Positions 1 to 62,579 of a DNA stretch of 64,000 bases are shown in pieces. The notes beneath the pieces were generated by a model, which searched no databases, was not told the DNA's origin, and worked only from the letters and a program-made list of their open reading frames with translations. The translations under genes were made by a program, and so were the position numbers. Origin of the DNA: an uncultured Planctomycetales bacterium (GTDB lineage Bacteria > Omnitrophota > Gorgyraeia > Aquiviventales > Aquiviventaceae); contig CAZKXY010000002.1 of assembly GCA_964556925.1 (NCBI GenBank), positions 1,953 through 65,952 on the forward strand, written 5' to 3'. The number at the start of each line of letters is the position of its first letter. The first letter of the stretch is position 1.

Positions 1-522
1 TCGACGCCTGAGGTGACGCGGCGGTGCCTGGAGTCGGGCATGGCGCTGTATTGGTGGAACCCGATGGTGGATGACGTCGACCGCCCGGACAGCGTCACGA
101 AGCGGCTCTATCAGATGAACCGGGCCCCCTGCATGGCGAGCGGGGGCAATGTCGGCACCGCGGCCTGGATGGTCGCGAGCCAGCTGCTGCGCAAGCGCGA
201 GGTCGCGGTGGTGGGGATGGATCTGGGCTACGCGCCCGGCACCCCCCTCGAGAAGACGCAATACTATCCCGAGCTGCGGGAGCTCTTCGGCGACCGGCTG
301 CAGGAGGCGATCATCCCGGTCGAGAATCCTTACCTGCGGGAGACGTGGTTCGCCGATCCGGCGTACTACTGGTACCGGGAACTGTTCCTGCAGATGGCCG
401 CGCAGGCGCGGTGCGTGACCGTGAATTGCACGGGGGGTGGGATCCTGTTCGGGCAGTCGGTGCGCTGGATGCCGCTGGGGGAGTTTCTCGCGAGCCGTTG
501 TCCGGCGAGCGTGGCGTCGTGA
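1..522 (+). CDS. DUF115/MptE-like (Maf-type) protein, C-terminal part; 5' end outside window
   Basis: Frame 1 is open from nt 1 to the stop at 520-522. GGNVGTAAWMVASQLLRKREVAVVGMDLGY resembles the conserved core of DUF115 / motility-accessory-factor-like proteins found in nonulosonic-acid loci. Family assignment is by eye only. Confidence 0.45.
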   Translation, partial: STPEVTRRCLESGMALYWWNPMVDDVDRPDSVTKRLYQMNRAPCMASGGNVGTAAWMVASQLLRKREVAVVGMDLGYAPGTPLEKTQYYPELRELFGDRLQEAIIPVENPYLRETWFADPAYYWYRELFLQMAAQARCVTVNCTGGGILFGQSVRWMPLGEFLASRCPASVAS

Positions 523-525
523 CCG

Positions 526-2130
526 ATGGCGAAGGTGCTGTTCGTGAATCCGCTGATTCGGGAGGAGGACGACCCCAAGCACGTCCCCATCGGCCTGGCC
601 CTGATGGCGGCCGTCGCCATGCGCCAGGGACACCGCGTGCAGGTCTACGACGCGAATGCCTGGCGGCTCGGGGATGAGGCGCTCATCGAGGCGCTGCGCG
701 CGGACCGGTGGGATGCCGTCGCCACCGGCTCGATCACTACGGCGTACGGGTACATCAAGAAGATCGTGCAGTTCGCCAAAGCGCATGCGCCGCAGGCGGT
801 CGTCATCCTCGGGGGCGGCGTCCTCACGAGCATGCCCATCGAGATCATGACCTTGCTGCCCCAGGTCGATGTCGGGGTGGTGGGGGAGGCGTTCGTGACG
901 TTTCCGGAGCTGCTCGCCAAGGTGGACCAGGGGGATCACGACTGGTCCGTCATCCAGGGGGTCGCCTACCGCGACGCCGCGGGGCAGATCCAATTGACCG
1001 ACATCCGGCCGCTCATCAGCATGCAGGAGATGGACCGGCTGCCCTATCCCGCCTGGGAGCTGTTCCCGCAGGACATCTACTGGAAGAACAGCAAGCTGCT
1101 CTACAGCGAGGAGAACTTCACGGCCAAGCGCCGGCTCGACATCAACACGAGCTACGGCTGCTCGCTGATCTGCCGCTTCTGCTACCACCTGGGCATCGCG
1201 GGGGACCTCAGCTACACGAAGAACGAGCATGGCCAGACCGATGTGGAGTTCACCTACAAGCGCGACATCCGCTGGCACAGCGCACGCTACGTCGTGGACA
1301 TGGTGAAGTACGCCCGGGACCGGTTCGGCATCGACTTCGTGCTCTTCCTGGACGAAAACCTCATGACGATGAATTCGTACAGCCACTGGAAGTGGCTGCC
1401 GGAGATCGCCGACCTGTGGATCAAGGAAGGGCTCCAGCCCATCTGCCGCCGGCAGAAGCGCCCGCACGACGCCAGGTGCAAAGGCATCCACTGGGGCGGA
1501 ACCAGCCACGCCACGCTGGTGCGCCAGGACCTCCTGGGCCTGCTCTATGAGTCGGGCTGCAGCCAGCTCTGCTACGGCTACGAGTCGTTTTCCGACCGGA
1601 TCCTGAAAAACCTCGGCAAGGGCACGACCGCCGCGCTCAATGAGCGCTCGCTGAAGTGGACGATCGACGCCGGGATCCGCCCCATCCCGAACCAGATCAT
1701 CGGGTTCCCGGATGAGTTCTTCGACAGCATCCGGGACAGCGTCGCCGCGTGGGAGCGGATGGGGATCAACGTCGTGCCGTTCTTCGCCACGCCGTACCCC
1801 GGCTCCGAGTGGTACTACACCTACAAGGACCGGATCCTCGAGCAGTACCAGGGGGATCTGGAGGCGTTTCTCCTCGACCTCGGTGACGCGACCAAGATCA
1901 CCGCGGTCATCAGCGAGAACTTCAATGCGGTGGAGCTGCTCGGGCTGCGCGAGCTCATGGTGCACCGCGATCTCAAGCGGATCAACGAGTATGAACAGCA
2001 ATGGCGCACGCGGCACGGGGAGCCGTTCATCCCGGATTTCCGGCGGTTCCCCCGGGTGCCGGCGAAGCAGCTCCGGGTGCTGCAGGAGCAGACGGCCACG
2101 CCGCCGGCTGCCGTTGCGGTGACAGGATGA
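526..2130 (+). CDS. B12-binding-domain radical SAM enzyme (class B, no. 1)
   Basis: N-terminal Rossmann-like cobalamin-domain pattern (KVLFVNP...PIGLALMAAVAMRQGHRVQVYDAN) followed by the CX3CX2C cluster motif YGCSLICRFCYH. The ATG lies 4 nt after the upstream stop. Confidence 0.85.
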   Translation: MAKVLFVNPLIREEDDPKHVPIGLALMAAVAMRQGHRVQVYDANAWRLGDEALIEALRADRWDAVATGSITTAYGYIKKIVQFAKAHAPQAVVILGGGVLTSMPIEIMTLLPQVDVGVVGEAFVTFPELLAKVDQGDHDWSVIQGVAYRDAAGQIQLTDIRPLISMQEMDRLPYPAWELFPQDIYWKNSKLLYSEENFTAKRRLDINTSYGCSLICRFCYHLGIAGDLSYTKNEHGQTDVEFTYKRDIRWHSARYVVDMVKYARDRFGIDFVLFLDENLMTMNSYSHWKWLPEIADLWIKEGLQPICRRQKRPHDARCKGIHWGGTSHATLVRQDLLGLLYESGCSQLCYGYESFSDRILKNLGKGTTAALNERSLKWTIDAGIRPIPNQIIGFPDEFFDSIRDSVAAWERMGINVVPFFATPYPGSEWYYTYKDRILEQYQGDLEAFLLDLGDATKITAVISENFNAVELLGLRELMVHRDLKRINEYEQQWRTRHGEPFIPDFRRFPRVPAKQLRVLQEQTATPPAAVAVTG

Positions 2131-2567
2131 AGCTGGATCATCTCGGGGTGGCGGTCGAACGGCTGGAGGCCAGCCTGGCGTACTACCGGGAAGACCTGGG
2201 CTATTCCTGGGATGGCATCATTCTGGTCGATCCGCTCCAGCAGGCACGAGCGGCGTTTGTCCGCCCGCCTGAGGGGGGGATCCGGTTTGAGCTGCTGGAG
2301 CCGATCGGTCCGGATTCTCCGCTGGCCGGCTGGCTGAAGCGCCGGACGAGATTCTTCCATGTGTGCTATCTGGTGGACAATCTCCCCCAGGCGCTCGAGC
2401 GGTTCGTGGCGCAGGGCAGCCGCGTCGTGTCCGAGCCGAAGCCGGCCGTGGCGTTTCAGGGGCGTTGCGTCGCGTTTGTGTTTACCAGGGACCGGGAACT
2501 CATCGAGCTGGCCGAAGCGGCTACCGCGCCAGCCGTGTCGCAGGAGGCGGTGCATGGACGAGGTTGA
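2127..2567 (+). CDS. VOC-family (glyoxalase / methylmalonyl-CoA-epimerase-like) protein
   Basis: MKLDHLGVAVERLEASLAYY... and FHVCYLVDNL are typical VOC beta-alpha-beta-beta-beta module signatures. The ATG at 2127 forms an ATGA overlap with the upstream stop. The ORF-track start at 2001 is rejected because it lies inside the preceding gene. Confidence 0.75.
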   Translation: MKLDHLGVAVERLEASLAYYREDLGYSWDGIILVDPLQQARAAFVRPPEGGIRFELLEPIGPDSPLAGWLKRRTRFFHVCYLVDNLPQALERFVAQGSRVVSEPKPAVAFQGRCVAFVFTRDRELIELAEAATAPAVSQEAVHGRG

Positions 2568-2814
2568 ACAGCGGGTTCAGCCGGGGCTGGAACAGCGGCT
2601 GCAGGCGGTCTTTCAGTCCGTGTTCCATTTGAGCGGGGCGCCGCTACAGGATGACTGGGGGCCCGGCACGCTGGAGGGCTGGGACTCGATGGGGCACCTC
2701 ACCTTGCTGGCCGCCCTGGAGCAGGAGTTCAAGATCAAGTTGGAGATGGACGACCTCATCGCGATGGACAGCGTCAAGGCGATCAAGGAACTGCTGGTCA
2801 AGAAAGAGGTCTGA
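2554..2814 (+). CDS. acyl carrier protein
   Basis: 86 aa. LEGWDSMGHLTLLAALEQEF contains the phosphopantetheine-attachment DS(M/L) motif in helix-II context. The ATG at 2554 overlaps the VOC gene by 14 nt. Confidence 0.8.
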   Translation: MDEVEQRVQPGLEQRLQAVFQSVFHLSGAPLQDDWGPGTLEGWDSMGHLTLLAALEQEFKIKLEMDDLIAMDSVKAIKELLVKKEV

Positions 2815-2816
2815 AG

Positions 2817-4355
2817 TTGTTGATCACCGATTGGATCTGCAGCGCCCGTGCGCGCCAGCCGTCCGCGCCGGCCATCATCGATGGCGAGCGCTGTTTCACC
2901 TATGAGGCGTGCGCCCGTGAGATCGCGAAGCTGGCCTGGGCGCTGAAGGGCCGCGTGCCGGCCGGGGCACGGGTGGGGCTCCTGATGGGCAATTGCGCCG
3001 AGCTGCTCTTCGCCCAGTATGCGGTGGTCAGCCTCGGCGCCATCGCCGTGCCGATCAACGTCGCCCTCCATGCGCAGAGGGTGGAGGAGATCCTGCGTGA
3101 TGCCGGGGTCAGCGTGGTGCTCGCGCAGGATCGGGCGCTGCGCCGGTATCAGGCGGTGCTGGAAGCGTGCCCGGACATTGCGTTGGTGGTGCAGGACGGG
3201 CGGGAGGCGGCGCTCGGCAAGGAGACGGCGTTGTGGGACACCCTGGAGGAACGCGCCGACTTCGAGCCGCGCAGGGATGTCAGCGAGCAGGCGACGGCGC
3301 TCATCCTGTACACCACCGGCACGACCGGCCGGCAAAAGGGGGTGGAGTTGACCCACGCCAACTTGATGGCGGCAACCCGCAACATCAACGAGGTGATGGG
3401 CCTCACGGAAGGCGAGCGGGAGGTCGTCTCGCTGCCGTTGACGCATTCGTTTGGCCTGGGACGGACGCGGTGCCTCTTGGAGACGCGAAGCACGGTGATC
3501 ATCGAGTCCGGGTTGGACCGGCCGGACAAGGTGCTCTCGAGCTGCCTGCGCCATCAGGCGACCGGGCTGGCGTCGGTGCCGGCGGGGTTTGCCATCTTTC
3601 TGTCGCGGTATGCTGACCTGCTGAACCAATGCGCTGGCTTCTTGCGGTACGTGGAGATCGGCAGCGCCCCCATGCCGCTGGCGCACAAGCGGGCCTTGAT
3701 GGAGGCGCTGCCGCGCACCCGGCTGTTCATGCACTACGGGCTGACTGAAGCCTCCCGGTCGGCGTTCATCGAATTCCATGCCGAGCCGGACCGGCTGGAG
3801 TCGGTAGGCAAGCCAGCGGTCAACGTGTCTATCAAGGTGGCGGATGACCAAGGACGCGCCGTGCCGCCTGGCCAGGTCGGGACGATCTGGATCGCCAGCG
3901 ACACGGTCATGAAGGGGTACTGGAACCGGCCGGAGGACACGGCGCGCGCGCTGGTGGACAGCTGGCTGATGACCGGCGACCTCGGATCGCTGGATGAGCA
4001 GGGCTATCTGACGCTCTGGGGCAGGACCCAGGACCTCATCAATGTGGGCGGGTACAAGGTACTCGCACGCGAGGTCGAAGACGTGCTGACGGGCCACCCG
4101 CGCGTGGAGGAATCCGCGGTGGTGGGGGTGCGGGATCCCTTGGAGATTTCGGGCGAGGTCGTGAAAGCGTTTGTCGTCCGGAAGGACGACGGGGTGTCGG
4201 CGGAGGAGCTGAAGCGCCATTGCCTCAAGCATCTGGAGCCGTGGAAGGTGCCCGCCATCGTGAGCTTCGTGCCCCGGCTACCGAAGACCGGCTCAGGCAA
4301 GGTCCAGAAGCAGCTGCTGGCCGACGCACTCGATGCCATGGCGAGGGCGGCATGA
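2817..4355 (+). CDS. ANL-superfamily acyl-CoA/acyl-ACP ligase (AMP-forming)
   Basis: AMP-binding core LILYTTGTTGRQKGVELTHANL, hinge TGDLG, and C-terminal catalytic Lys motif PKTGSGKVQK. TTG start 2 nt after the ACP stop. Confidence 0.85.
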   Translation: MLITDWICSARARQPSAPAIIDGERCFTYEACAREIAKLAWALKGRVPAGARVGLLMGNCAELLFAQYAVVSLGAIAVPINVALHAQRVEEILRDAGVSVVLAQDRALRRYQAVLEACPDIALVVQDGREAALGKETALWDTLEERADFEPRRDVSEQATALILYTTGTTGRQKGVELTHANLMAATRNINEVMGLTEGEREVVSLPLTHSFGLGRTRCLLETRSTVIIESGLDRPDKVLSSCLRHQATGLASVPAGFAIFLSRYADLLNQCAGFLRYVEIGSAPMPLAHKRALMEALPRTRLFMHYGLTEASRSAFIEFHAEPDRLESVGKPAVNVSIKVADDQGRAVPPGQVGTIWIASDTVMKGYWNRPEDTARALVDSWLMTGDLGSLDEQGYLTLWGRTQDLINVGGYKVLAREVEDVLTGHPRVEESAVVGVRDPLEISGEVVKAFVVRKDDGVSAEELKRHCLKHLEPWKVPAIVSFVPRLPKTGSGKVQKQLLADALDAMARAA

Positions 4356-5560
4356 TCGGCGCAGCCCTCGAACGCGAGCGGCTGCCGGCCGCTGGACTGG
4401 ATGCCATCCGGTGGCTGGTGCCGCGCCTGGTCCTGCCTCGACATGTCTGTTTTCGAGCCGGGTCGTTATCGATGCTGAAGCAGCTTGGCGCCCGCCGCGC
4501 GTTCGTGATCACTGGCCCTTCCTCGGCCAGGGCCTCTGGCGCCCTGGACAAGGTGCTCGGCCATGTGGTGAGCGGCGGGGGCGAGGCGGTCTGTTATGAC
4601 CGGATCGCCGGGGAGCCGACGTGGTCCAGGATTCGCGAAGGGGTGGAGGCCATGCGGGCGGCTGGACCGGACTGGATCATCGGGATCGGCGGGGGCTCGG
4701 TGCTGGATGCGGCCAAGCTCATGTATGCGTGGTACGAGCACCCTGCGCTGGAGCCGGCGGCCTGCGCGCGGCCCTTCAGCATCCCGCCGCTGCCGCGCCG
4801 CAGCCGGCTGGGGCTGATCCCGACCACCGCCGGCACGGGGTCCGAGGTGAGCTGCTCGGCCATCGTCCAGAATAGCGAGCGGCGGATCAAAGAGATCATC
4901 GTGTCGCACGAGCTGTTGCCGGATGTCGCGCTCCTGGACCCCTTGCTGACCGTCAGCCTGCCGGCGCCCATGACGGCCGCGACCGGGATGGATGCGTTGA
5001 CGCACGCCATCGAAGCCTTCGTGTCCCTGGCGCACAACCCGTTCACGGATGCGTGCGCCGCGGCGGCGGTGCGCCTCATCCTGTGCCACTTGCCGCCGGC
5101 CGTCCAGGATGGCAGCCGCCTGGAGGCGCGCGATGGCATGCTCCACGCCGCCTGCCTGGCCGGCATCGCCCAGAGCAATGTGTCTGTCGGGCTCGTCCAT
5201 GCGATCGCGCACAAGCTGGGGGCGATGGCGATGAGCCCGCTCCCGCACGGGGTGCTCAACAGCCTGATGCTGCTTCCGGTGATGCGGTTCAACGCCCAGG
5301 CGCAGCCCGGGCGGTACGAGGCGCTGGCCGTCGCATCCGGCTTCAGCGGATTCGAAGCGCTGGTGTCCGCGATCGAGCGCCTCCAGCAGGGGGCGCGGAT
5401 GCCCCGGCGCCTGAGCGCGGCCGCGCCGGCAGAGGAGCTGCTGGGACGCATGGACGAGCTCTGCCGGGACATCCTGGCGGATCCGTGCGCGCGGACCAAC
5501 CCGCGGTGCGCTTCGGCGGAGGACATCGCGCGGCTGCTCGAAGCCGCGCTGGCGGAGTGA
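4352..5560 (+). CDS. iron-containing (group III) alcohol dehydrogenase
   Basis: GIGGGSVLDAAKLM (GGGSxxD NAD motif) and metal-His region DALTHAIEAF. The ATG at 4352 forms an ATGA overlap with the ligase stop. Confidence 0.8.
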   Translation: MIGAALERERLPAAGLDAIRWLVPRLVLPRHVCFRAGSLSMLKQLGARRAFVITGPSSARASGALDKVLGHVVSGGGEAVCYDRIAGEPTWSRIREGVEAMRAAGPDWIIGIGGGSVLDAAKLMYAWYEHPALEPAACARPFSIPPLPRRSRLGLIPTTAGTGSEVSCSAIVQNSERRIKEIIVSHELLPDVALLDPLLTVSLPAPMTAATGMDALTHAIEAFVSLAHNPFTDACAAAAVRLILCHLPPAVQDGSRLEARDGMLHAACLAGIAQSNVSVGLVHAIAHKLGAMAMSPLPHGVLNSLMLLPVMRFNAQAQPGRYEALAVASGFSGFEALVSAIERLQQGARMPRRLSAAAPAEELLGRMDELCRDILADPCARTNPRCASAEDIARLLEAALAE

Positions 5561-7983
5561 TGGACTCGATCGAGGCCTTGTTGAGGCAGCCGCCGTTTGC
5601 GGCCGGTCCGGAGGAGAAAACGGCGCTGTTGGTGCCCGCGGTCCAGGCGGCGCTGCAACGTCATTACGAGCATTGCGCCGCCTTCAGGACCGTGTGCGAC
5701 ACGCGCAGGTTCGCGCCTGCGCGCGGTGTCTCTGATCTTGCCGCGATCCCGTATCTGCCGGCGCAGTTCTTCAAGCAGATGGCGCTCAGCACGAACGACG
5801 GGGGCGGGCCGACCGTGACGCTGCGGTCCAGTGCGACGACCTCCGGGGTCCCGAGCCAGATCGTCGTGGACGCCGTGACGGCCAGGCGGCACAAGCTCGC
5901 CGTGGTGTCGGTCCTCAAGAGTTACCTGGGGCCGGAGCGCCTGCCGTTCGTGGTGTTTGACGCCGACCCGTCGTTGCAGGGGCTGGCGCCCTCATCGCTT
6001 ACCGCGCGGGGGGCGGCGATCCGAGGGTTCCTCCTGGCCGCCAACGCGGTGGACTATGTGATGGTCGAAGAGGGGGAGGGCGGCCTCCGGCTGGACACAG
6101 AGCGGCTCGGGCGGACCCTGGCCCAATTCGGAGACGGCGAGCGGATGTGTCTCTTTGGCTTCACCGCACCCCTGTACCAGGCCATGCGCCAGGTCCTGGA
6201 AGGGAGCATGCGGTACTGGCTGCCGCAGGCGACGGTGCTGCATATCGGCGGCTGGAAGAAGCTGCAGCAGCAGGCCGTGACGAAATCCGCGTTCGCCGCG
6301 CTCATGGGCGAGACGGTTGGCGTGCCGCCCGACCGGGTGATCGACGTGTACGGATTCACCGAGCAGATCGGCATGATCTACCCGGACTGCGAGCAGGGGG
6401 TCAAGCATGCCCCGGTGTTCGCCGAGGTCATCGTGCGCGATCCGCGCACGCTCCAGCTGGCGGACGACGGCCAGGAGGGGCTGCTGCAGTTCATCTTCCC
6501 CGTCCCGCACAGCTACCCCGGGGTGTCGGTCATCACGGATGACGTGGGCCGGATTGTTGGGAGAGACCGGTGCGGCTGCGGGCGCCGCGGCACCGCCTTT
6601 GTCGTCTTGGGACGCGCGCCGGCGGCCGAGCCGCGCGGGTGCGGAGACCTGGCCCCGGCGCCTGCGGCGCTCGGGCCGCGTGACGCCATGGCGAGGCATG
6701 CCTTGTCGCAGGCCACGACTGAGCGCGAGCTCGCGCTCGACGAGCTGATCCAGGAGCTGCGCCGACACGCCGACGCGGTCCATGCGCTGGAGAGCGACCA
6801 GATCCTCGGCCTGCTCGGCGAGCTGCGCCGCGTCCTGGCTGACCCCGCCCACCCGCTGCACCAGCAGCTGCGGCCGCTCGGGCTGCCGTTCCTCTTGCGC
6901 TGGCTCGCGCCTGAGCGGCTTGCAGCCCAGTTGGATCTCGCGATGCACGGCACGCGCCGCTATCTGGATGCCTTTTTGCCGTCCGGGGACCGGCTGCTCC
7001 ATGCGCAGCCGCGCGGGCTCGTGGTGCACTGGATCGCCGGGAATGTGCCGCTCCTAGGCGTGTTCTCGCTCGTGCAGGCCTGGCTGACGAAAAACGTCAG
7101 CCTGATCAAGGTGCCGGCCGACTGGCCGGGCGTGATCCCCGCGCTGCTGGATACACTCTCGCAGGTGACGTATCTCGCGGCGGACGGCCGGGCGACCTCC
7201 GGGGTGGCGCTCGCGCGCGGCGCGGCGGCACTGTATGTCGATCGCGATGACCGCGCCGCCCAGGAAACACTCTCTCTGGCGGCGGATGCGCGGGTGGCGT
7301 GGGGCGGCCGCGAGGCCATTGAAGCGATCCAGGCGCTGCCGAAGGTGCCCGGCGTGGAAGACATCCTGTTCGGGCCCAAGTACTCGTACATGGTGATCGG
7401 CAGGGAACGTCTGGCGGCAGGGGCCGGGGTGCTCGACCTGGCCACGCGCGCCGCGTTCGACGTCTGCCTCTTCGACCAGCAGGGGTGCAACTCGCCGCAC
7501 ACCATCTTCGTCGAGCGGGGCGGGGCGGTGAGCCCCCGCGAGTTCGCCGCCAGGCTGGCCGAGGCCATGGAGCGGGTGTGCGCCACGATTCCGAAGGCTC
7601 CGCCCAGTCCGCAGGACGTCTCACGCCTGCTCACGCTGCGGGCGACGTATGACGTGCGCGGCCTCGCGCATTACTCCCCGGGGCCGGAGTGGACGGTGCT
7701 GTATGGGGAGGATGACGAGGGGTTGGCCGAGGCGTGCGGCGGCCGCGTGGCGTTCGTCCGGCCGATCGCGGACGCGATGGATGCGGCCGAGCTGGCCAGC
7801 CGGCGCACCCAATCGATCGGCGTGGCGTTGGACCACAGCCGCCGGATCGCGTTTGCCGAGCGGGCCACGTGGGGCGGGGCCGAACGCTGTCCCCCCGTCG
7901 GCGAGATGAGCCATTACGAATCGCCTTGGGACGGGGTCTTCATGATGGACCGGCTCGTGCGGTGGGTGACGACCTATGCGTAA
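5560..7983 (+). CDS. fused LuxE-like acyl-protein synthetase / LuxC-like acyl-CoA (acyl-ACP) reductase
   Basis: The N-terminal ~370 aa (QPPFAAGPEEKTALLVPAVQAALQRHYEHCAAFRTVC, SSATTSGVPSQIVVD, VIDVYGFTEQ, GCGRRGT) looks LuxE-like. The C-terminal ~430 aa (HWIAGNVPLLGVFSLVQAWLTKNVSLIKVP, FDQQGCNSPHTIFVE) looks LuxC-like. It is one uninterrupted frame. The ATG at 5560 shares 1 nt with the upstream TGA. Confidence 0.7.
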   Translation: MDSIEALLRQPPFAAGPEEKTALLVPAVQAALQRHYEHCAAFRTVCDTRRFAPARGVSDLAAIPYLPAQFFKQMALSTNDGGGPTVTLRSSATTSGVPSQIVVDAVTARRHKLAVVSVLKSYLGPERLPFVVFDADPSLQGLAPSSLTARGAAIRGFLLAANAVDYVMVEEGEGGLRLDTERLGRTLAQFGDGERMCLFGFTAPLYQAMRQVLEGSMRYWLPQATVLHIGGWKKLQQQAVTKSAFAALMGETVGVPPDRVIDVYGFTEQIGMIYPDCEQGVKHAPVFAEVIVRDPRTLQLADDGQEGLLQFIFPVPHSYPGVSVITDDVGRIVGRDRCGCGRRGTAFVVLGRAPAAEPRGCGDLAPAPAALGPRDAMARHALSQATTERELALDELIQELRRHADAVHALESDQILGLLGELRRVLADPAHPLHQQLRPLGLPFLLRWLAPERLAAQLDLAMHGTRRYLDAFLPSGDRLLHAQPRGLVVHWIAGNVPLLGVFSLVQAWLTKNVSLIKVPADWPGVIPALLDTLSQVTYLAADGRATSGVALARGAAALYVDRDDRAAQETLSLAADARVAWGGREAIEAIQALPKVPGVEDILFGPKYSYMVIGRERLAAGAGVLDLATRAAFDVCLFDQQGCNSPHTIFVERGGAVSPREFAARLAEAMERVCATIPKAPPSPQDVSRLLTLRATYDVRGLAHYSPGPEWTVLYGEDDEGLAEACGGRVAFVRPIADAMDAAELASRRTQSIGVALDHSRRIAFAERATWGGAERCPPVGEMSHYESPWDGVFMMDRLVRWVTTYA

Positions 7984-8698
7984 TCAGTTCCGGTGCCAGG
8001 CACCTCGCCTCCGGCGAGGAGCCAGGCACCGGCGCGAGATTGTGATCGTCGGGGCGGGCGGATTGGGCAAGGAAATCCTCCAGTACGCGAAGGATTTCTG
8101 CGCGGCGACCAGCGGCTACCGCGTGAAGGGCTTTGTCGATCGCGACCCGCTGCGGCAGGGGACCGATCACTGCGGCTATCCGGTCGTCGGGGCTGACGAC
8201 GGGTGCGCGATCGGGGCGCACGACGTGTATCTCCTCGCGCTCGGGACGCCGGAGGGAAGGAAACAGGCGGTGGAGGCGTTGCAGGCGCGGGGCGCGGCCT
8301 TTTTGACGCTGGTGCACCCGTTGGCCTCTGTGGCGCCGTCGGCCGAGGTGAGAACCGGCTCCGTGATCTGCCCCTTTGCCTACGTGGGTCCCGATGCCGT
8401 CGTGGAGGAATACGTGCTCGTGAACCTCTATGCCAGCTGCGGCCATGACGTTCGGATCGGCAGGTATGCCGTCCTCGGCCCCTACGTCTGCACGAACGGC
8501 CACGCCGCCATCGAGGAGGAGGTGTTCCTGGCCACCCATGCCACGGTCACCGTGGGCAAGCGCGTCGGCCGCGGGTCCAAAGTGTCGGCCGGGGCCGTGG
8601 TCACGCAGGATGTGCCGCCCCATGTGCTCGCCGCAGGCAACCCGGTGAGGTGGCGGGAGTTGGAAGCGATGCAAGCGGTGTGGAAGCAGGACCGATGA
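7976..8698 (+). CDS. NeuD/PglB/LegH-family sugar N-acetyltransferase (hexapeptide repeat)
   Basis: N-terminal Rossmann-like EIVIVGAGGLGKEILQYA followed by left-handed beta-helix hexapeptide repeats (GRYAVLGPYVCTNGHAAIEEEVFLATHATVTVGKRVGRGSKVSAGAVV). Confidence 0.75.
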   Translation: MRNQFRCQAPRLRRGARHRREIVIVGAGGLGKEILQYAKDFCAATSGYRVKGFVDRDPLRQGTDHCGYPVVGADDGCAIGAHDVYLLALGTPEGRKQAVEALQARGAAFLTLVHPLASVAPSAEVRTGSVICPFAYVGPDAVVEEYVLVNLYASCGHDVRIGRYAVLGPYVCTNGHAAIEEEVFLATHATVTVGKRVGRGSKVSAGAVVTQDVPPHVLAAGNPVRWRELEAMQAVWKQDR

Positions 8699-8711: not shown

Positions 8712-9908
8712 ATGAGGACGATTGGCGTTGTGACCGTCGGGCGCTCAGACTACGGCAACTACGTGCCGCTGTTGCGAGCGATACAGCGGGATGCCGCGCT
8801 GCGCCTTCAGCTCATCGTGGGCGGCATGCACCTGTCAGCCGCGTTCGGCTTGACGGTCGAGGCGATCCGGGCCGATGGCTTTGACATCGCCGACCGCGTC
8901 GAGATGCTCCTGTCGTCAGACGCCCCCGAAGGGATCGCCACGTCGATGGGGGTCGGCGTGATGGGGTTCGCGCAGGCCTACGCGCGTCACCGGCCGGACG
9001 TGCTGGTCGTGCTGGGTGATCGCTTCGAGATGTATGCGGCCGCGTCCGCCGCGGTCCCGTTTCGGATGCCGATCGCCCACATCGCCGGCGGCGAGCTGAC
9101 GGAAGGCGCCATCGACAACAGCTTCCGGCACGCGATCACGAAACTCAGCCACCTGCACTTCGTGACGACCGCCACCTACGCCGCGCGCGTCATCCAAATG
9201 GGGGAGGAGCCGTGGCGGGTGACGGTGTCCGGCGCGCTCGGGTTGGATCATCTGCAGGCCTTCGTCGCCTCCGGCCGCCCGGCGCTGGAGGCCCTGGTGG
9301 GCCTCCGCCTCGATCCTCCTCCCCTGGTGGTGACCTACCATCCGGTGACGTTGGAGTACGACCGCGCCGGGGTCCAGATCGACGCGCTGCTGAACGCGCT
9401 GCAGCCGCTCGACCGGCCGCTCATCTTCACCCTCCCGAACGCGGATACCAATGGGCGCGTGATCCGTCAACGCATCGAGGCGTTCGTGGCGCGCCGGCCC
9501 TCCGCCGTCCTGGTCCCGAATCTTGGCACGCAGGCGTATTTCAGCCTGATGGCGCACGCCGCCGCGATGGTGGGCAATTCGTCCAGCGGCCTTGTCGAGG
9601 CGCCATCCTTCGGCCTGCCGGTCGTGGACATCGGCACGCGACAGGCGGGCCGCCTGCGGGCCGCGAACGTCATTCCCTGCGGGTACGGGGCCGACGAGAT
9701 CCGCCAGGCCCTCGCGCGCGCCCTCTCGCCGGAGTTCCGAGCGGGGTTGCAGGGCCTGCGCAATCCCTACGGCGAGGGTCGCGCGTCCGAGCGCATCCTC
9801 GAGGCGCTCACAGGGGTGGCGATCGACGACCGCCTGCTCGTGAAGGCCTTCCACCAGGTCGGCGCTCGGCAGGCGCCCCAGGAGCTCTCGGCATGGACAC
9901 GGATTTAA
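8712..9908 (+). CDS. neuC: hydrolysing NDP-N-acetylhexosamine 2-epimerase (NeuC/LegG family)
   Basis: MRTIGVVTVGRSDYG, GDRFEMYAAASAAVPFRMPIAHIAGGELTEGAIDNSFRHAITKLSHLHF and GNSSSGLVEAPSFGLP match the NeuC-type epimerase pattern. Confidence 0.8.
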   Translation: MRTIGVVTVGRSDYGNYVPLLRAIQRDAALRLQLIVGGMHLSAAFGLTVEAIRADGFDIADRVEMLLSSDAPEGIATSMGVGVMGFAQAYARHRPDVLVVLGDRFEMYAAASAAVPFRMPIAHIAGGELTEGAIDNSFRHAITKLSHLHFVTTATYAARVIQMGEEPWRVTVSGALGLDHLQAFVASGRPALEALVGLRLDPPPLVVTYHPVTLEYDRAGVQIDALLNALQPLDRPLIFTLPNADTNGRVIRQRIEAFVARRPSAVLVPNLGTQAYFSLMAHAAAMVGNSSSGLVEAPSFGLPVVDIGTRQAGRLRAANVIPCGYGADEIRQALARALSPEFRAGLQGLRNPYGEGRASERILEALTGVAIDDRLLVKAFHQVGARQAPQELSAWTRI

Positions 9909-10966
9909 CCAACTTCTGCGTGGCCCCGGGCACCCCGCTGAGGCGGGTGGTGGCCCAGATGGATGGCAACCGGCTGGGGATTGCGCTCGTGATTGATGGC
10001 GAGCGTCGGCTGGTCGGGACGGTCACGGACGGGGATGTCCGCCGCGCCGTGCTGGCGAACATCGGGTTCGACCAGCCGGTCACCGAAGTCCTGCGCCGCA
10101 AAGCCGGCACCAAGTTTGCGATGCCGGTCACGGCGCCGGCCGGGGCCGACCCGAGCACCTATCTCAGCGTGCTCAAGGAGCACCGGCTGCTGTATCTGCC
10201 CCTGATTGATGGGGACGGCCGCGTGGCCGGGCTGGTGACGCTGGCGGAGTTCGTCCCGGCTGAGCCGCTGACGATCCAGGCCGTGGTGATGGCGGGCGGG
10301 AAGGGCCGCCGGCTCCATCCGCTGACGCAGCAGCTGCCCAAGCCGATGCTGCTGGTCGGCGGACAGCCCGTGCTCGAGATCATCATCAAGCAGCTGCGGG
10401 ACGCCGGCATCAGGCAGGTGACGGTGACGACCCATCACCACCCGGACCGGATCGCGGAACATTTCGGGGATGGGAGCGGCCTGGGGGTGGCGCTCTCCTA
10501 TCTAGAGGAAGAGCGCCCGCTGGGCACGGTCGGCGGCCTGGGGCTGCTGGGCGCCCCGAACGACACCACGCTGGTGATCAACGGCGACATCCTGACCCAG
10601 GTCGATTTCCGCGCGATGCTGGACTACCACCGGGAGCACCAGGCGGACCTCACGGTGGCGGTGCGCCAGTACGACCTGAAAGTCCCCTACGGCGTGGTCG
10701 AATGCGCCGGCGAGCGGGTCCGCCGGATCAGCGAAAAACCGGCGTTCCTGGTGTTTGTCAACGCCGGGATGTACCTCCTGGAACCGCTGGTCTACGGCTA
10801 TATCCCGAAGGGGGAGCGGTTGGACATGACCGACCTGATCCAGCGGGTGATTGATGACGGCCGGACGGTGGTCAGCTTCCCGGTGCGGGAGTACTGGCTG
10901 GATATCGGGCAGCGCGACGAATACGAACAGGCCCAAGCGGAAGTGAAACAGTGGGGCGCTCCATGA
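9893..10966 (+). CDS. CBS-pair + sugar-1-phosphate nucleotidyltransferase (PtmE-like)
   Basis: The N-terminal CBS pair (GIALVIDGERRLVGTVTDGDVRRAVL; YLPLIDGDGRVAGLVT) is followed by the NTP-transferase motif VVMAGGKGRRLHPLTQQLPKPML. The ATG at 9893 overlaps neuC by 16 nt. Confidence 0.75.
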   Translation: MDTDLTNFCVAPGTPLRRVVAQMDGNRLGIALVIDGERRLVGTVTDGDVRRAVLANIGFDQPVTEVLRRKAGTKFAMPVTAPAGADPSTYLSVLKEHRLLYLPLIDGDGRVAGLVTLAEFVPAEPLTIQAVVMAGGKGRRLHPLTQQLPKPMLLVGGQPVLEIIIKQLRDAGIRQVTVTTHHHPDRIAEHFGDGSGLGVALSYLEEERPLGTVGGLGLLGAPNDTTLVINGDILTQVDFRAMLDYHREHQADLTVAVRQYDLKVPYGVVECAGERVRRISEKPAFLVFVNAGMYLLEPLVYGYIPKGERLDMTDLIQRVIDDGRTVVSFPVREYWLDIGQRDEYEQAQAEVKQWGAP

Positions 10967-11946
10967 GGTGGGCCGGCGCGCGGGTGCTCGTGACCGGGGC
11001 GGGAGGGTTCATCGGCAGCCATCTCGCCGAGCGGTTGGTGGAGCTCGGGGCGACGGTGCGGGCGCTGGTCCGCTACCGGTCCCAGGGCTCCTGGGGATGG
11101 CTCGACCACAGCCCGCTGAAGCAGGAGCTCGAGGTCGTGGCGGGCGACATCACCGACCGCGATGCGGTCGCCCACGCGATGCAGGAGGTCCAGGTCGTGT
11201 TCCACCTGGCCGCCTTCATCGCCATCCCGTACTCGTATCAGGCCCCGGAGTCGTTCCTGCGGGCGAACGCGGGAGGCACCCTCACCGCGCTGCAGGCGGC
11301 GCGCGCGCAGGGCGTGGCGCGGTTCATCCACACCTCGACGAGCGAAGTCTACGGGACCGCCCGGTCCGTGCCGATCAACGAGCAGCATCCGTTGCAGGCC
11401 CAGTCGCCGTACGCGGCCAGCAAGGTCGCCGCCGACAAGCTGGTGGAATCCTTCGGATGCGCATTTGGCTTGCCGGTGGTGACGGTGCGGCCCTTCAACA
11501 CCTTCGGCCCCCGGCAGTCGGCGCGGGCGATCGTGCCCACGATTATCACCCAGTGCTTGACGGACACGACGGTGCGGCTGGGCAACCTCGCGCCCACGCG
11601 GGATCTGACCTATGTGAGCGATACCGTGGAGGGCTTCGTGCGGGCGGGCGCCTCGCCCCACGCGGTCGGCCGCACGATCAACCTGGGGTCGGGGCGCGAG
11701 ATCGCCATCGGCGAGCTGGCGCGGCGGATCGCTGAGCTGGCCGAGCAGCGCGTGCAGATCGCGCAGGAGCAGCAGCGCATGCGGCCGCAGGACAGCGAAG
11801 TGGAGCGTCTCCTCTCGGATAACCGCCTGGCGAAGGAGCTGCTCGGCTGGCAGCCCGCGGTGTCGCTGGATGAGGGGCTGCGACTGACGATCGAGTGGAT
11901 GCGGGAACACCTTGATGGCTACCGTCCAGGCGCCTACGTCCTTTGA
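10963..11946 (+). CDS. NAD-dependent NDP-sugar 4,6-dehydratase/epimerase (extended SDR; LegB-like position)
   Basis: VLVTGAGGFIGSHLAERLV (GxxGxxG), catalytic STSEVYG and YAASKVAADKL (YxxxK). ATGA overlap with the upstream stop. Confidence 0.8.
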   Translation: MRWAGARVLVTGAGGFIGSHLAERLVELGATVRALVRYRSQGSWGWLDHSPLKQELEVVAGDITDRDAVAHAMQEVQVVFHLAAFIAIPYSYQAPESFLRANAGGTLTALQAARAQGVARFIHTSTSEVYGTARSVPINEQHPLQAQSPYAASKVAADKLVESFGCAFGLPVVTVRPFNTFGPRQSARAIVPTIITQCLTDTTVRLGNLAPTRDLTYVSDTVEGFVRAGASPHAVGRTINLGSGREIAIGELARRIAELAEQRVQIAQEQQRMRPQDSEVERLLSDNRLAKELLGWQPAVSLDEGLRLTIEWMREHLDGYRPGAYVL

Positions 11947-13156
11947 CGCGCCCGCCCCACCGCGGCGCATTCCGCTCAGCGAGCCGAGGCTCGCCGGCAA
12001 CGAGTGGACGTATCTGAAGGCGTGCCTGGACAGCGGCTGGATCTCGTCGGTCGGGCCGTTCGTCAGCCGGTTTGAGCAGGCCTTTGCGGCCAACGTCGGG
12101 GCCGCGCACGCCGTGGCGGTGGTGAACGGCACCGCAGGGCTGCATCTGGCGCTGCGCGCCGCCGGGGTCGGGCCCGGTGATGAAGTGCTGGTGCCGACCC
12201 TCACGTTCATCGCGCCGGTGAACGCGATCCGCTATTGCGGGGCGCATCCGGTGTTCATCGACGCCGATCCGCAGACCTGGCAGATGGACGCCGCCGGCGT
12301 GCGGCGGTTCCTGGAGCATCAGTGCGAGCGGCGAGGCGGCGCCTGCGTCAACACCCGGACCGGCCGCCGCGTGCGCGCCATCCTGCCGGTGCACCTCCTC
12401 GGCTCGGCGTGCGCGATGGACGAGATCATGGAGCTAGGCCGTCGCTATGGCCTGATGGTGGTGGAGGATGCGTGCGAGGCGATCGGCGTGCGCTCTCGCG
12501 GCCGCCATGTGGGGACGGTGGGGGACCTGGGCGTCTTCAGTTTTAACGGCAACAAGACCCTGACCTGCGGAGGGGGCGGCATGGTGGTGGCGGCCGATGC
12601 GCGGCAGGCCGACTATGTCCGCTATGTCTCGGCCCAGGCGCGGGATGATCAACGGGAATATCACCACCGCGACGTCGGCTACAACTACCGACTCACGAAC
12701 CTGCATGCGGCGATTGGATTGGCGCAACTCGAGCAGATGGATCAGTTGCTGGATCGCAAACGCCGCATCGCCGCCGCCTACGAGCGCGCGTTGCGCGGCA
12801 TCGACGGCATCACGCTGATGCCCACACCGCCGCAGACCGACCCGGGGTTTTGGCTGTACACCGTCCTGTTGACGCCAGGCACCACGGTGGGCCAACGGAA
12901 CGCGGTGCTTGATCGACTGGCTGCCGAGGGGTTGGAGGCGCGGCCGCTGTGGCAGCCGATCCACACGCTGCCGCCCTATCGGGGCTGCCAGGCGTTCGAC
13001 GTGCAGGTGGCGCCCGACTTGTACGCGCGCGCCGTGAGCCTGCCCAGCAGCGCGGGGATGACGGAGGACGAGCTGCAGCGATGCGTCGCTGTGGCGAACG
13101 CCGTGCTACGACTATCAGGGACGGACGATCGCCGTGGAGAATCGGGGAGCACATAG
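11915..13156 (+). CDS. DegT/DnrJ/EryC1/StrS PLP-dependent sugar aminotransferase (LegC-like position)
   Basis: IPLSEPRLAGNEWTYLKACLDSGWISSVGPFV, and FSFNGNKTLTCGGGGMVV with the PLP-binding Lys context. Confidence 0.8.
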   Translation: MATVQAPTSFDAPAPPRRIPLSEPRLAGNEWTYLKACLDSGWISSVGPFVSRFEQAFAANVGAAHAVAVVNGTAGLHLALRAAGVGPGDEVLVPTLTFIAPVNAIRYCGAHPVFIDADPQTWQMDAAGVRRFLEHQCERRGGACVNTRTGRRVRAILPVHLLGSACAMDEIMELGRRYGLMVVEDACEAIGVRSRGRHVGTVGDLGVFSFNGNKTLTCGGGGMVVAADARQADYVRYVSAQARDDQREYHHRDVGYNYRLTNLHAAIGLAQLEQMDQLLDRKRRIAAAYERALRGIDGITLMPTPPQTDPGFWLYTVLLTPGTTVGQRNAVLDRLAAEGLEARPLWQPIHTLPPYRGCQAFDVQVAPDLYARAVSLPSSAGMTEDELQRCVAVANAVLRLSGTDDRRGESGST

Positions 13157-13166
13157 GGGGGAACCC

Positions 13167-14942
13167 ATGGAGGAGCAGGGGGAAGTGAAGGGCTCGTGTG
13201 GATGCGGCTCCTGCGGCTGCGGCTCTCACGACGCCGACCAGGAGGGGGGGCACGTCACGCCGGTGCGGGTGCAGCTGCAGACAACGGCTGAAGATGGCCC
13301 GAGCAAGTTGACGCGCGTCCTGTTGATCGATATTGAACGGGATGCGCCCAATGGGGGGTGGGGGCAGCTTGATGCGAGTTGGCGGAGCCACCCGACTGGG
13401 CTCCTGTACCTGGTGTCCTTCGTCCGACAGCGGTTCCCCGATATGGAGTTCAAGGTGTTTCATACCTCAACCGTTGACAATCCCCGTGAGACCGTCAAGG
13501 CCATGATCGGGGAGTTTGCCCCTGAGCTGATCGGCCTGCGGTCGTTGTCCAGTGCCCGGGATGCGTTCATCGCCATGGCGCAATTCCTTCGCACCGTCGC
13601 CCCAGGGGTTCCCCTGATCGGCGGCGGGCCGTATCCCAACGCCTCCCCGGAGGAGTTGGTCGAGCCGCAGCTCCTCGATCTCGCCGTCATGGGGGAGGGG
13701 GAGGAAACCTTTCTTGAAATCGTCCAAGCCCTGCGCACCACCGGTCGGCTCCCCTTGGACGTCCTGGGGACGGCCGTCCTCAAGGCCGGGCAGTTTCACG
13801 TCAATCCCCCCCGCCCCTTGATGAAGGATTTGAACGTGGTGCCGTTTCCCGACTACGATCTGATTGATCTGCACGCGTACAGCAATATGGCCAACCAGGC
13901 CTTCCAAGACCTCTCCAAGAGCGCCGTGATCTGCGGCTCGCGGGGATGTCCGTACTCCTGCTTCTACTGCCATCAACTCTTCGGGAAGCAGATTCGCCGC
14001 CGCACCCCGGAGAACATCGTGGGGGAGCTGCAGTATCACGTCAATCGCGGGATCAGGAACTTCATGTTTGTCGATGACATTTTCAACGTCCCCAAGGACA
14101 AATGTAAGGACATCCTGCGGTTGGTAATCAAGGAGGTCCCGGGGATTCGACTCAACTTCCCCCAGGGCTTGCGGGCGGATCAGATGGACGAGGAGGTGCT
14201 GGACCTGTTTCAGGAGGCGGGGACGGTGCTCATGGCGCTGGCGGTGGAATCCTCCAGTGCGCGCTTGCAGAGACTGATGGGGAAGAATCTCCAGATCGAA
14301 CGCGCCCGGCGTTCGATTGAGTACGCGTCCACCCGCTTTGTGGTGACCTGCTTCTTTATCGTGGGGTTCCCGACCGAGACCTACGAGGAAGCGATGGGCA
14401 CCATTCAGTTCGCCAAGGACCTCGAATACGTCTCGCAGCCGGTCCTCTCCGTCCTGCGGGTGTATCCGGGGACGTTCCTGTACGACCTGTTGAAACCCAC
14501 CAAAGAAGAGACCCAGCGGCTGCTCGAACAGCAAGCGCAACCCTATACGCCCACCCTCTTTCGGGAGACCCCGTTTTATGGGGATGTTTTTCCGCCGGAG
14601 AAGGTGCCGCTGCGGGGGACCGACATTCGGAAGATTCGCTGGGAGTGGATGATGCGGATCGTGAGAAACCCGCAGCGAATGGCCAAGAGCCATGCGATGC
14701 TCAAGCAGCATTTTACCTACGAGGAGATCATTGAGTTCTATCGGAACTTCTACGACAAGCGCACGTTTGGACACGACGATTACATGGCCATCGAGAACGT
14801 CCAGAAGCAGGTCGAACAAGGTGAAGCGAGCAAGAATGGCGAAGCGAGCAAGAACCGTGAGAATATCGACCCCCTCTTCGCCGAGGCAGAGTCATCCGGC
14901 GCCCGGTGGACCACGACGGGGTGGCGGGTGGTCAAGGAGTGA
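13167..14942 (+). CDS. B12-binding-domain radical SAM enzyme (no. 2) with Cys/Gly-rich N-terminal extension
   Basis: B12-domain pattern (VLLIDIE...PTGLLYLVSFVRQRFPDMEFKVF) and cluster motif GSRGCPYSCFYCHQ. The ATG at 13167 follows a GGGGGG SD-like run. The N-terminus is MEEQGEVKGSCGCGSCGCGSHD. The C-terminus carries an 18-bp x2 repeat (GEASKN GEASKN, 14820-14855). Confidence 0.85.
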   Translation: MEEQGEVKGSCGCGSCGCGSHDADQEGGHVTPVRVQLQTTAEDGPSKLTRVLLIDIERDAPNGGWGQLDASWRSHPTGLLYLVSFVRQRFPDMEFKVFHTSTVDNPRETVKAMIGEFAPELIGLRSLSSARDAFIAMAQFLRTVAPGVPLIGGGPYPNASPEELVEPQLLDLAVMGEGEETFLEIVQALRTTGRLPLDVLGTAVLKAGQFHVNPPRPLMKDLNVVPFPDYDLIDLHAYSNMANQAFQDLSKSAVICGSRGCPYSCFYCHQLFGKQIRRRTPENIVGELQYHVNRGIRNFMFVDDIFNVPKDKCKDILRLVIKEVPGIRLNFPQGLRADQMDEEVLDLFQEAGTVLMALAVESSSARLQRLMGKNLQIERARRSIEYASTRFVVTCFFIVGFPTETYEEAMGTIQFAKDLEYVSQPVLSVLRVYPGTFLYDLLKPTKEETQRLLEQQAQPYTPTLFRETPFYGDVFPPEKVPLRGTDIRKIRWEWMMRIVRNPQRMAKSHAMLKQHFTYEEIIEFYRNFYDKRTFGHDDYMAIENVQKQVEQGEASKNGEASKNRENIDPLFAEAESSGARWTTTGWRVVKE

Positions 14943-34670: not shown

Positions 34671-34730
34671 AAAGGTGTCTGACACCTTTCCCGACGCCAG
34701 ACGAGCGGTCGACAGGTGTCTGACACCTGT
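34671..34730. promoter_or_regulatory. two perfect 19-nt palindromes 41 bp apart (operator- or REP-like)
   Basis: AAAGGTGTC-T-GACACCTTT (34671-34689) and ACAGGTGTC-T-GACACCTGT (34712-34730). Located ~90 nt upstream of the KdsB-like start. Confidence 0.6.
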
Positions 34731-34816
34731 TGCGATGCGCAGCGGCCTGCCTGCCGGGCAGGCAGGCAGGACCCGGCGGGCTAGCGTTAGGCCGGCAGGC
34801 TGAGGCGGGTGGGGGG

Positions 34817-61540: not shown

Positions 61541-61559
61541 GGCGCTGTCGGGCACGGCG

Positions 61560-62546: not shown

Positions 62547-62579
62547 TCGCTTCGTCGGGCGTGTTCAACAGGTGGGGGG

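Follow-up and report, generated by a model that had tools for sequence, protein, structure and literature searches.

A putative RfbK-L-M-N-type N-acyl tailoring cassette in a legionaminic-acid gene cluster of an uncultured bacterium

The O1 antigen of Vibrio cholerae consists of perosamine N-acylated with tetronate and requires wbeL (= rfbL), for which a role in tetronate synthesis is predicted (PMC3441752). The genes rfbK-L-M-N are predicted to form an N-acyl cassette for 3-deoxy-L-glycero-tetronate (2,4-dihydroxybutyryl) (PMC12208996; PMC3441752), in which RfbL is described as the enzyme that activates 2,4-dihydroxybutanoate, with CoA or RfbK as the recipient (Morona et al. 1995, Gene 166:19, cited in PMC12208996). 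In the group II flagellin islands of Aeromonas, genes for an acyl carrier protein (ACP), a 3-oxoacyl-ACP reductase, an AMP-dependent synthetase, luxE and luxC lie downstream of pseH (PMC7874193), and genes of like kinds occur in many enterobacterial flagellin glycosylation islands (PMC4875605); these sets have been interpreted as fatty-acid or liposugar synthesis (PMC7874193, PMC4875605). Here we compare with these systems a run of genes in a 64-kb stretch of DNA (positions 1,953 to 65,952 of contig CAZKXY010000002.1, called the window below) from an uncultured bacterium of the Omnitrophota. Judged by homology and gene order, the core of this run, comprising ACP, ligase, alcohol dehydrogenase and LuxE/LuxC, is a relative of the little-studied V. 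cholerae O1 tetronate cassette. We consider it rather probable that positions 2127-8698 form a six-gene RfbK-L-M-N-type N-acyl tailoring cassette that is inserted in a legionaminic-acid cluster and places a hydroxyacyl group on N7. The window therefore offers a new example, within a legionaminic-acid cluster, of a kind of cassette that is already known but poorly characterized.

This reading is built on homology and synteny with rfbKLMN, on conserved catalytic residues, on the linkage of such cassettes to NeuD-type transferases and amino-sugar genes, and on the non-orthology of the window's NeuD-like protein. The original prediction for this DNA had described an ACP-centered module that loads a carboxylic acid onto a carrier, modifies it with the help of a radical SAM enzyme, and reduces it to supply an unusual substituent to the adjacent nonulosonic-acid genes. 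The outline of that interpretation, in which the nonulosonate receives an N-acyl group other than acetyl, stands, but its radical SAM step falls away and its reduction chemistry had been left vague. The parts list named the domains correctly, as Pfam and NCBIfam profile searches of the window's open reading frames (ORFs) confirm, but missed the kinship with the V. cholerae tetronate set and with the ACP/LuxE/LuxC sets of flagellin islands.

Kinship with the tetronate genes of Vibrio cholerae O1

With the LuxE-LuxC fusion protein as query, more than 180 homologs with both domains at full length were retrieved, and one homolog cluster (P0082; 38% identity, 100% coverage) is the V. cholerae "acyl protein synthase/acyl-CoA reductase RfbN." In the V. 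cholerae O1 rfb locus (L005), the perosamine genes and an ABC transporter are followed by an RfbK-L-M-N-O-type set encoding an ACP of 77 amino acids, an ANL ligase of 471, an iron alcohol dehydrogenase (Fe-ADH) of 374, a LuxE-LuxC protein of 825, and a hexapeptide transferase of 188. The window has the same gene order, from ACP through ligase, Fe-ADH, and LuxE-LuxC to a hexapeptide-repeat acyltransferase, likewise in a glycan locus and with a DegT-type aminotransferase adjoining. By BLASTP, its ligase is 29% identical to RfbL over the full length (E 3e-57), its Fe-ADH 33% identical to RfbM over 361 amino acids (E 2e-61), and its fusion 37.5% identical to RfbN over 826 aligned positions, again full length; the ACP matches RfbK weakly (19%, E 5e-8 in a five-protein subject set), with the WDS serine motif present in both. 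The two loci differ in the transferase, which is of the NeuD/PglD type in the window and of the RfbO type in V. cholerae, and in the acceptor pathway, which is that of a GDP/Leg-type nonulosonic acid in the former and of GDP-perosamine in the latter. The window also has an extra gene for a VOC-fold protein resembling methylmalonyl-CoA epimerase (MMCE), a gene that V. cholerae lacks.

In the ACP the predicted phosphopantetheine site is Ser45 (nucleotides 2686-2688) within the motif WDSMG, and the ligase has both a TTGTTG and a GSGKV motif. The top NCBIfam match of the ligase is a long-chain fatty-acid CoA ligase subfamily, below cutoff, and the families nearest to the Fe-ADH are short-chain aldehyde and hydroxy-acid enzymes, again all below cutoff. 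Within the fusion, the LuxE domain (nucleotides 5578-6648) and the LuxC domain (nucleotides 6781-7965) carry the conserved residues Cys361 (nucleotides 6640-6642) and Cys643 (nucleotides 7486-7488), respectively, and both cysteines, together with the LuxE motif SSATSG-PS, are invariant across 14 diverse homologs. Both folds are shared with the LuxC-LuxE reductase of luminous bacteria (PDB 7XC6), in which the two cysteines align with the C-terminal cysteine of LuxE and the cysteine of the LuxC motif DQQACFS, residues that become acylated in LuxE and LuxC. Because these acyl-accepting cysteines align, a mechanism running from acyl-AMP through acyl-cysteine to aldehyde is expected to be common to the two enzymes. 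The luminous-bacteria reductase is made of separate chains, in contrast to the single fused chain of the window, whose context is glycan synthesis and for which a short polar substrate is predicted. Separate adjacent genes for LuxE (374-375 amino acids) and LuxC (430-443 amino acids) are also found in the two closest sister lineages (L173, 15049-17473, and a contig of ENA ERZ27297570). An assembly error, suggested by these split genes, was considered as the origin of the fusion and rejected, since an identical fused ORF is present in independent assemblies and most members of the family are fused.

The VOC protein scores 63 bits against the methylmalonyl-CoA epimerase family TIGR03081, below the cutoff of 115, and so falls outside that family, whereas its fold relatives in the PDB include human MMCE (3RMU, E 2e-11). 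Residues His-5, Gln-38, Glu-55, His-78, and Glu-127 are conserved in cassette-linked homologs that are 26-35% identical, and the H/Q/H/E pattern resembles the metal site of methylmalonyl-CoA epimerase. The protein is assigned to the cassette as an accessory and would probably act as a C2 epimerase of the thioester.

In a pattern scan that covered one genome for each species, 248 species genomes had the LuxE-LuxC fusion, and neighborhoods were counted in the best 80 of the 248 loci by phmmer with the window proteins as queries. An ACP is present in 70 of the 80 and an ANL ligase in 76, and the order seen in V. cholerae (ACP, ligase, ADH, LuxE-LuxC, acyltransferase) recurs in most. Fe-ADH is found in 50/80, and the remainder often have a short-chain dehydrogenase/reductase (SDR) just upstream of the ACP, so that the SDR-containing variant of the flagellin islands is also common in this sample. 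In 30 loci, some of which have no NeuB, the cassette has a NeuD-type transferase no more than 3 kb away, and an RfbO-type transferase occurs anywhere in the locus in only 4. The counts are 14 for a VOC homolog within 3 kb, 13 for NeuB within 10 kb, 29 for a DegT-type aminotransferase, and zero for a Maf-like gene. On the strength of these neighborhoods, with their NeuD-type transferases and amino-sugar genes, the cassette serves amino sugars in general as an N-acyl donor module, with nonulosonic acids as one of its recurrent clients. Homologous cassettes were found among genes for amino sugars and nonulosonic acids instead of lipid or wax genes, so that the outcome named beforehand as refuting the original prediction, an occurrence in lipid or wax/alkane loci alone, did not arise. 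Both the VOC accessory and the NeuD-type transferase recur in other genomes, and no description of them was found in the literature searched.

Some individual loci deserve mention. In Vibrio fortis (L046) the cassette adjoins NeuB, NeuC, and NeuA; a paper on the nab cluster of the Vibrionaceae makes no mention of ACP, LuxE, or ADH genes (PMC7371886). The oral treponeme Treponema parvum (L048, 6699-12448) has the row VOC-ACP-ANL-ADH-LuxEC near NeuB and a PtmE-like gene. On the flagellin of T. denticola, a nonulosonic acid bearing a 2-methoxy-4,5,6-trihydroxyhexanoyl group has been reported (PMC13439194), and by analogy this acyl group could be the product of such a cassette, a suggestion that we offer as a lead only. 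The literature searched gave no match for 4-hydroxybutanoyl or dihydroxybutanoyl nonulosonic acids.

The NeuD-type transferase and the proposed acyl product

The block stands in the middle of a cluster, with NeuA, a PtmA-like SDR, and NeuB upstream and homologs of NeuD, NeuC, PtmE, LegB, and LegC downstream. This corresponds to the Campylobacter-type GDP-sugar legionaminic-acid pathway (Schoenhofen et al. 2009). An identical LuxE-LuxC protein was found on metagenomic contigs, one of which (L001) reaches upstream of the window with the order CMP-transferase, SDR, PDDEXK_3-domain gene, NeuB, 67-residue ORF, MptE-like (Maf-like) gene, and radical SAM gene.

The NeuD-like protein belongs to the NeuD/PglB/VioB family TIGR03570 (171.4 bits, over the cutoff of 160.8). 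Its nearest solved structures, VioB, WeeI, PglB, and PerB, are all N-acetyltransferases of 4-amino sugars, and the protein therefore fits acylation of a 4-amino group whose nitrogen becomes N7 of legionaminic acid. We compared it with its counterpart in the closest cluster without a cassette (L089, from an Omnitrophica metagenome-assembled genome (MAG)). There, NeuA is 65% identical to that of the window, the SDR 69%, NeuB 68%, the small ORF 59%, the Maf-like protein 65%, the radical SAM protein 77%, NeuC 61%, PtmE 72%, LegB 70%, and LegC 70%, whereas NeuD is just 31% identical over 107 amino acids in the midst of flanking genes at 59-77%. Over all cassette-less loci, NeuD is 21-35% identical to the window protein and NeuC typically 50-64%. 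By bit-score ranking the window NeuD is closest to the NeuDs that adjoin LuxE-LuxC cassettes, and in a single neighbor-joining tree, calculated without support values, it lies apart from the clade that the cassette-less NeuDs form. By these measures the window NeuD is not the ortholog of the LegH-type NeuD in the nearest cassette-less clusters.

Beside NeuD, at 11483-14263, the L089 cluster encodes a HisF-like WbuZ, HisH, and the "N-acetyl sugar amidotransferase" WbuX, that is, an acetamidino module. Because this module stands at the cassette's place, the simplest history suggested by the sequences is that tailoring modules were swapped together with the transferase, NeuD having come with the cassette and replaced an ancestral LegH-type acetyltransferase. 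The order from VOC to NeuD is kept in two sister lineages. The cassette and the WbuX/WbuY/WbuZ module thus occupy equivalent positions beside NeuD and are both plug-in diversifiers of the N-substituent, but their proteins are unrelated, and so is their chemistry, the WbuX/WbuY/WbuZ module performing amidotransfer onto an N-acetyl group and the cassette making a new acyl group and transferring it. Base composition speaks neither for nor against a recent horizontal insertion, the GC content of the cassette (65-70%) being no different from that of the rest of the window.

Given that two adenylate-forming activities, those of the ANL ligase and of LuxE, fit the activation of two carboxyl groups, the substrate would be dicarboxylic. 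The LuxE domain would activate a short dicarboxylic acid at one carboxyl, forming first the adenylate and then the thioester at Cys361, from which the acyl group would pass to Cys643 of LuxC and be reduced with NAD(P)H to the semialdehyde. The iron alcohol dehydrogenase would convert the semialdehyde to the omega-hydroxy acid, and the ANL ligase would then activate the other carboxyl and load it onto Ser45 of the ACP. Loading of the ACP might instead come first, with reduction taking place on the carrier, and the sequence cannot tell these two orders apart. The MMCE-like VOC protein would probably set the C2 configuration of the thioester, after which the NeuD/PglD-type transferase would move the hydroxyacyl group from the ACP to the 4-amino group of a nucleotide-linked 4-amino-4,6-dideoxy-GlcNAc intermediate. 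Following NeuC and NeuB, the hydroxyacyl would sit on N7 of legionaminic acid in place of the acetyl group. Were the substrate L-malate, the group would be (S)-2,4-dihydroxybutanoyl, the V. cholerae product. In this scheme we infer which acid is used, in what order the steps run, what the VOC protein does, and which nitrogen is acylated. The delivery of a non-acetyl N-acyl group to the NeuD-like transferase, as first proposed, holds up by the rfbKLMN homology and the cassette-type NeuD, whereas an aldehyde, ether, or alkyl product, also proposed, is less likely than half-reduction of a dicarboxylate, because the product must stay activated for N-acyl transfer and two adenylating activities are present.

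Several points weigh against this assignment. To our knowledge, the NeuD/PglD-family enzymes characterized so far use acyl-CoA donors, not acyl-ACP. RfbO shows no significant similarity to the window's NeuD-type protein by BLASTP, hexapeptide repeats aside, and the NeuD tree is of the limited kind just described. The tetronate chemistry itself rests on a sequence-based proposal of 1995, and no in vitro reconstitution of any member of the cassette family, V. cholerae included, was found in the literature searched. Given that V. cholerae has no VOC gene, the acid here may be different from malate, and the role given to the VOC protein is a guess. Finally, the 64-kb island encodes many other sugars, any of which is possibly the real acceptor.

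The alternative that survives best, although unlikely in our estimate, is that hydroxyacyl-ACP is made but that the NeuD-like protein is an ordinary acetyl-CoA-dependent LegH, with an unrecognized transferase acting elsewhere, be it on a de-N-acetylated N5, in an O-ester, or on a different amino sugar of the island. The acyl-CoA donors mentioned above would suit such an enzyme, and in some loci combining a cassette with nonulosonic-acid genes (L027, L031, L041, and L050) the nearby NeuD groups with or beside the canonical LegH-type clade. It would also suit this alternative that the island encodes further aminotransferases and dehydratases and many proteins without a Pfam match, but other acyltransferase-family genes were not detected in the window. 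The NeuD gene, moreover, overlaps the LuxE-LuxC stop by 8 nucleotides and is not an ortholog of the related LegH-type genes, and the 30 of 80 loci with NeuD-type genes in or beside the cassette, some of them lacking NeuB, also speak for a transferase that belongs to the cassette.

Distinctly less probable is that the cassette resembles a fatty-acid reductase and supplies a long-chain fatty aldehyde or acyl group for a "liposugar," as proposed by the authors of PMC7874193 and PMC4875605. LuxE and LuxC are indeed components of the fatty-acid reductase of bioluminescence, and the ligase has the long-chain NCBIfam match noted above, albeit below cutoff, but neither domain of the fusion reaches its Lux equivalog (92 bits for LuxC against the 750 cutoff of NF052251; 68 for LuxE against the 550 of NF052244), and no LuxD or luciferase domains were found among the window genes by Pfam or NCBIfam. 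A short-chain-aldehyde-type Fe-ADH is integral to the cassette, and the only cassette linked to a known structure, found in V. cholerae O1, is associated with a dihydroxy acid of four carbons. The flagellin islands resemble the window in having an ACP-centered ligase with LuxE and LuxC among nonulosonic-acid genes, a likeness drawn by gene kinds, and differ from it in their separate LuxE and LuxC, in an SDR instead of Fe-ADH, in pseudaminic acid as the sugar, and in flagellin as the target; no flagellar genes were seen in the 64-kb window. A pseudaminic-acid derivative of Aeromonas piscicola AH-3 has a mass of 376.14 Da (PMC7874193). By our own arithmetic this equals Pse5Ac7Ac (316.13) plus 60.02, which corresponds to the exchange of an acetyl for a C4H7O3 acyl such as dihydroxybutanoyl. 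The excess of ∼60 Da is too small for a fatty chain; it is consistent with dihydroxybutanoyl, to which O-methylglyceroyl is isomeric, and, although not proof, it argues against a long chain.

The radical SAM gene and a conserved triad

The radical SAM protein encoded at 526-2130 has a CxxxCxxC motif at residues 212-219 (nucleotides 1159-1182) and the features of the cobalamin-dependent class (class B). All of its NCBIfam matches are far below cutoff, leaving it without a subfamily in that database, and a PDB sequence search found no homologs. Homologs 63-89% identical occur in MAGs annotated as Omnitrophota, Rokubacteria, Dehalococcoidia, and Chloroflexota, a conservation far above that of any cassette protein and one that makes it the most conserved gene of these clusters (50-89%). 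Orthologs (50-83% identity) are present in 86 nonulosonic-acid loci that lack the cassette, and not one of these 86 has an ACP, ANL, Fe-ADH, LuxE/LuxC, or VOC gene. Conversely, a close relative is absent from all 80 LuxE-LuxC loci, only one of which has any B12-radical SAM genes, these being paralogs of the window's other radical SAM genes. The adjacency of radical SAM and VOC genes is repeated only in two sister lineages, in which the radical SAM protein is 88-89% identical, and because it is confined to lineages with at least 88% identity, it points to shared ancestry of one insertion. A role as methylase of the acyl chain, which the original prediction had named among its options, was rejected on these neighborhood statistics as an artefact of adjacency. 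The gene is not part of the cassette but belongs to a separate triad unit.

Very little probability attaches to the earlier model of a single seven-gene module in which the ACP carries a monocarboxylic acid, the radical SAM enzyme C-methylates it, the VOC protein isomerizes it, and reduction then releases it from the carrier as an aldehyde or alcohol for an N-acyl, ether, or alkyl substituent: the overlap of the radical SAM stop with the VOC start (ATGA) and the adjacency in two sister lineages would suit it, but the counts of 0/86 and 0/80, the position of most radical SAM genes directly behind an MptE-like gene, and the restriction of the adjacency to near-identical lineages all stand against it, and reduction of the thioester off the ACP would leave the N-acyltransferase nothing to transfer and make the LuxE adenylation redundant.

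The triad consists of a ∼67-residue protein, an MptE/Maf-like protein of ∼340 residues, and the B12-radical SAM enzyme, and it occupies window positions 1-2130 and, upstream, positions 3766-4963 of L001. Wherever upstream DNA is present, in three neighborhoods and 80 metagenomic loci, the order small ORF, MptE-like gene, radical SAM gene is almost always found, and in this way the triad recurs in most of the 86 cassette-less loci, embedded in Leg-type clusters of diverse uncultivated lineages. The fragment of the MptE-like gene at the window's edge has no Pfam match alone, but the complete gene (L001, 3941-4963) carries PF01973 (MptE-like), and phmmer with the full L001 protein matches the fragment at 400 bits. 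The small protein, with the motifs FLKGNY and KLGGS-x-x-FV and an acidic tail, forms a conserved family in the alignment and has no NCBIfam match. Nothing relevant to a B12-radical SAM/MptE-like unit in nonulosonic-acid clusters was found in the literature searched, and the triad is the more unusual item of the two. On one reading, the small protein may be a sugar carrier or acceptor and the radical SAM enzyme may carry out C-methylation or another radical edit of the nonulosonate. It is a tentative proposal, one we would not yet favor, that the triad is an undescribed nonulosonic-acid-linked system and, separately, that the VOC-bearing subtype of the cassette would furnish N7 of legionaminic acid with a hydroxyacyl group of a new, 2-substituted kind.

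The window contains two more genes for B12-binding radical SAM proteins, at 13167-14942 and 20672-22234. They are only distantly paralogous to 526-2130 and to one another (28-63 bits), and their nearest NCBIfam families are of the PhpK and BchE types, all below cutoff.

Gene layout and wider meaning

The features of the block and of the genes that follow it are collected in Table 1. The window is GC-rich (65-72%), and a third-position GC frame plot shows one continuous run of plus-strand genes across it. From the MptE-like gene through NeuD, the junction gaps are +3, -4 (ATGA), -14, +2, -4 (ATGA), -1 (TGATG), and -8 nucleotides, so that every junction overlaps or is 2-3 nucleotides apart, and the coupling originally described is borne out. 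There are indeed seven coupled genes, but only six lie inside 526-7983, the seventh being the NeuD-like gene. The ligase start codon is TTG at 2817, for which other gene callers chose 2820. Equally tight packing continues through the NeuC, PtmE, LegB, and LegC genes, and the whole 64-kb window is a single co-directional, tightly packed array of ∼55 glycan-related genes; for this reason coupling alone does not delimit a functional unit. What had been taken for one block is two units, the first comprising the VOC, ACP, ANL, Fe-ADH, LuxE-LuxC, and NeuD genes and the second the radical SAM gene.

Table 1. Positions of the cassette, triad, and adjoining nonulosonic-acid genes in the window
Feature	Position	Strand	Length (amino acids)	Domains or remarks
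MptE-like/Maf-like gene, 3' part	1..522	+		Start upstream of window; member of small-ORF/Maf-like/radical SAM triad
B12-binding radical SAM enzyme	526..2130	+	534	Pfam B12-binding + Radical_SAM
VOC-fold protein	2127..2567	+	146	Pfam Glyoxalase_4
Stand-alone ACP	2554..2814	+	86	PF00550, 26.8 bits
ANL acid-thiol ligase, RfbL/WbeL-like	2817..4355	+	512	Pfam AMP-binding + AMP-binding_C
Group III iron alcohol dehydrogenase, RfbM-like	4352..5560	+	402	Pfam Fe-ADH + ADH_Fe_C
LuxE-LuxC fusion, RfbN-like	5560..7983	+	807	Pfam LuxE (residues 7-363), LuxC (residues 408-802)
NeuD/PglD-family left-handed beta-helix N-acyltransferase	7976..8698	+	240	Pfam PglD_N + hexapeptide
NeuC/LegG-like 2-epimerase	8712-9908	+		Pfam/NCBIfam
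CBS + nucleotidyltransferase, PtmE-like	9893-10966	+		Pfam/NCBIfam
4,6-dehydratase, LegB-like	10951-11946	+		Pfam/NCBIfam
DegT aminotransferase, LegC-like	11912-13156	+		Pfam/NCBIfam

Elsewhere the island holds several 4,6-dehydratases, GT2 and GT4 transferases, two sugar C-methyltransferases (29604-30965 and 44205-45446), two asparagine-synthase-like amidotransferases (51498-53444 and 58618-60483), and a PMT_2/TPR/PKD protein of 900 amino acids (48796-51498). A CMP-sugar cytidylyltransferase domain is fused with a D-2-hydroxyacid dehydrogenase at 34730-36703, and an extra stand-alone CTP_transf_3 gene is found at 55029-55766, besides the NeuA-like gene upstream of the window. The sugar island ends (61527-63713) with a DAHP-synthase-I-family gene, which matches NeuB weakly, and after it a shikimate-dehydrogenase-like gene. 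Three consecutive genes at 24656-26790 encode an HpcH/HpaI aldolase, a HAD phosphatase, and an SDR, a row that could serve in making or modifying a keto-deoxy acid sugar. Proteins of 517-710 amino acids without a Pfam or NCBIfam match are encoded at 14973-17105, 17102-18670, 22872-24659, 26787-28535, and 53483-55036; among them, 17102-18670 and 53483-55036 (370 bits) and 22872-24659 and 26787-28535 (528 bits) are paralog pairs.

With the radical SAM gene set aside as part of a different, widely conserved, and uncharacterized unit, the predicted product of this locus is legionaminic acid that bears a hydroxyacyl group in place of acetyl at N7. The tetronate genes of V. cholerae O1, the "fatty-acid synthesis" genes of flagellin islands, and the sets found in 248 species can then share one testable reading, that of a portable cassette by which a small diacid ends up as a hydroxyacyl group in amide linkage to an amino sugar, and the analysis argues against the "liposugar" reading. 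More broadly, nonulosonic-acid clusters can diversify their N-substituents by the exchange of whole tailoring modules.

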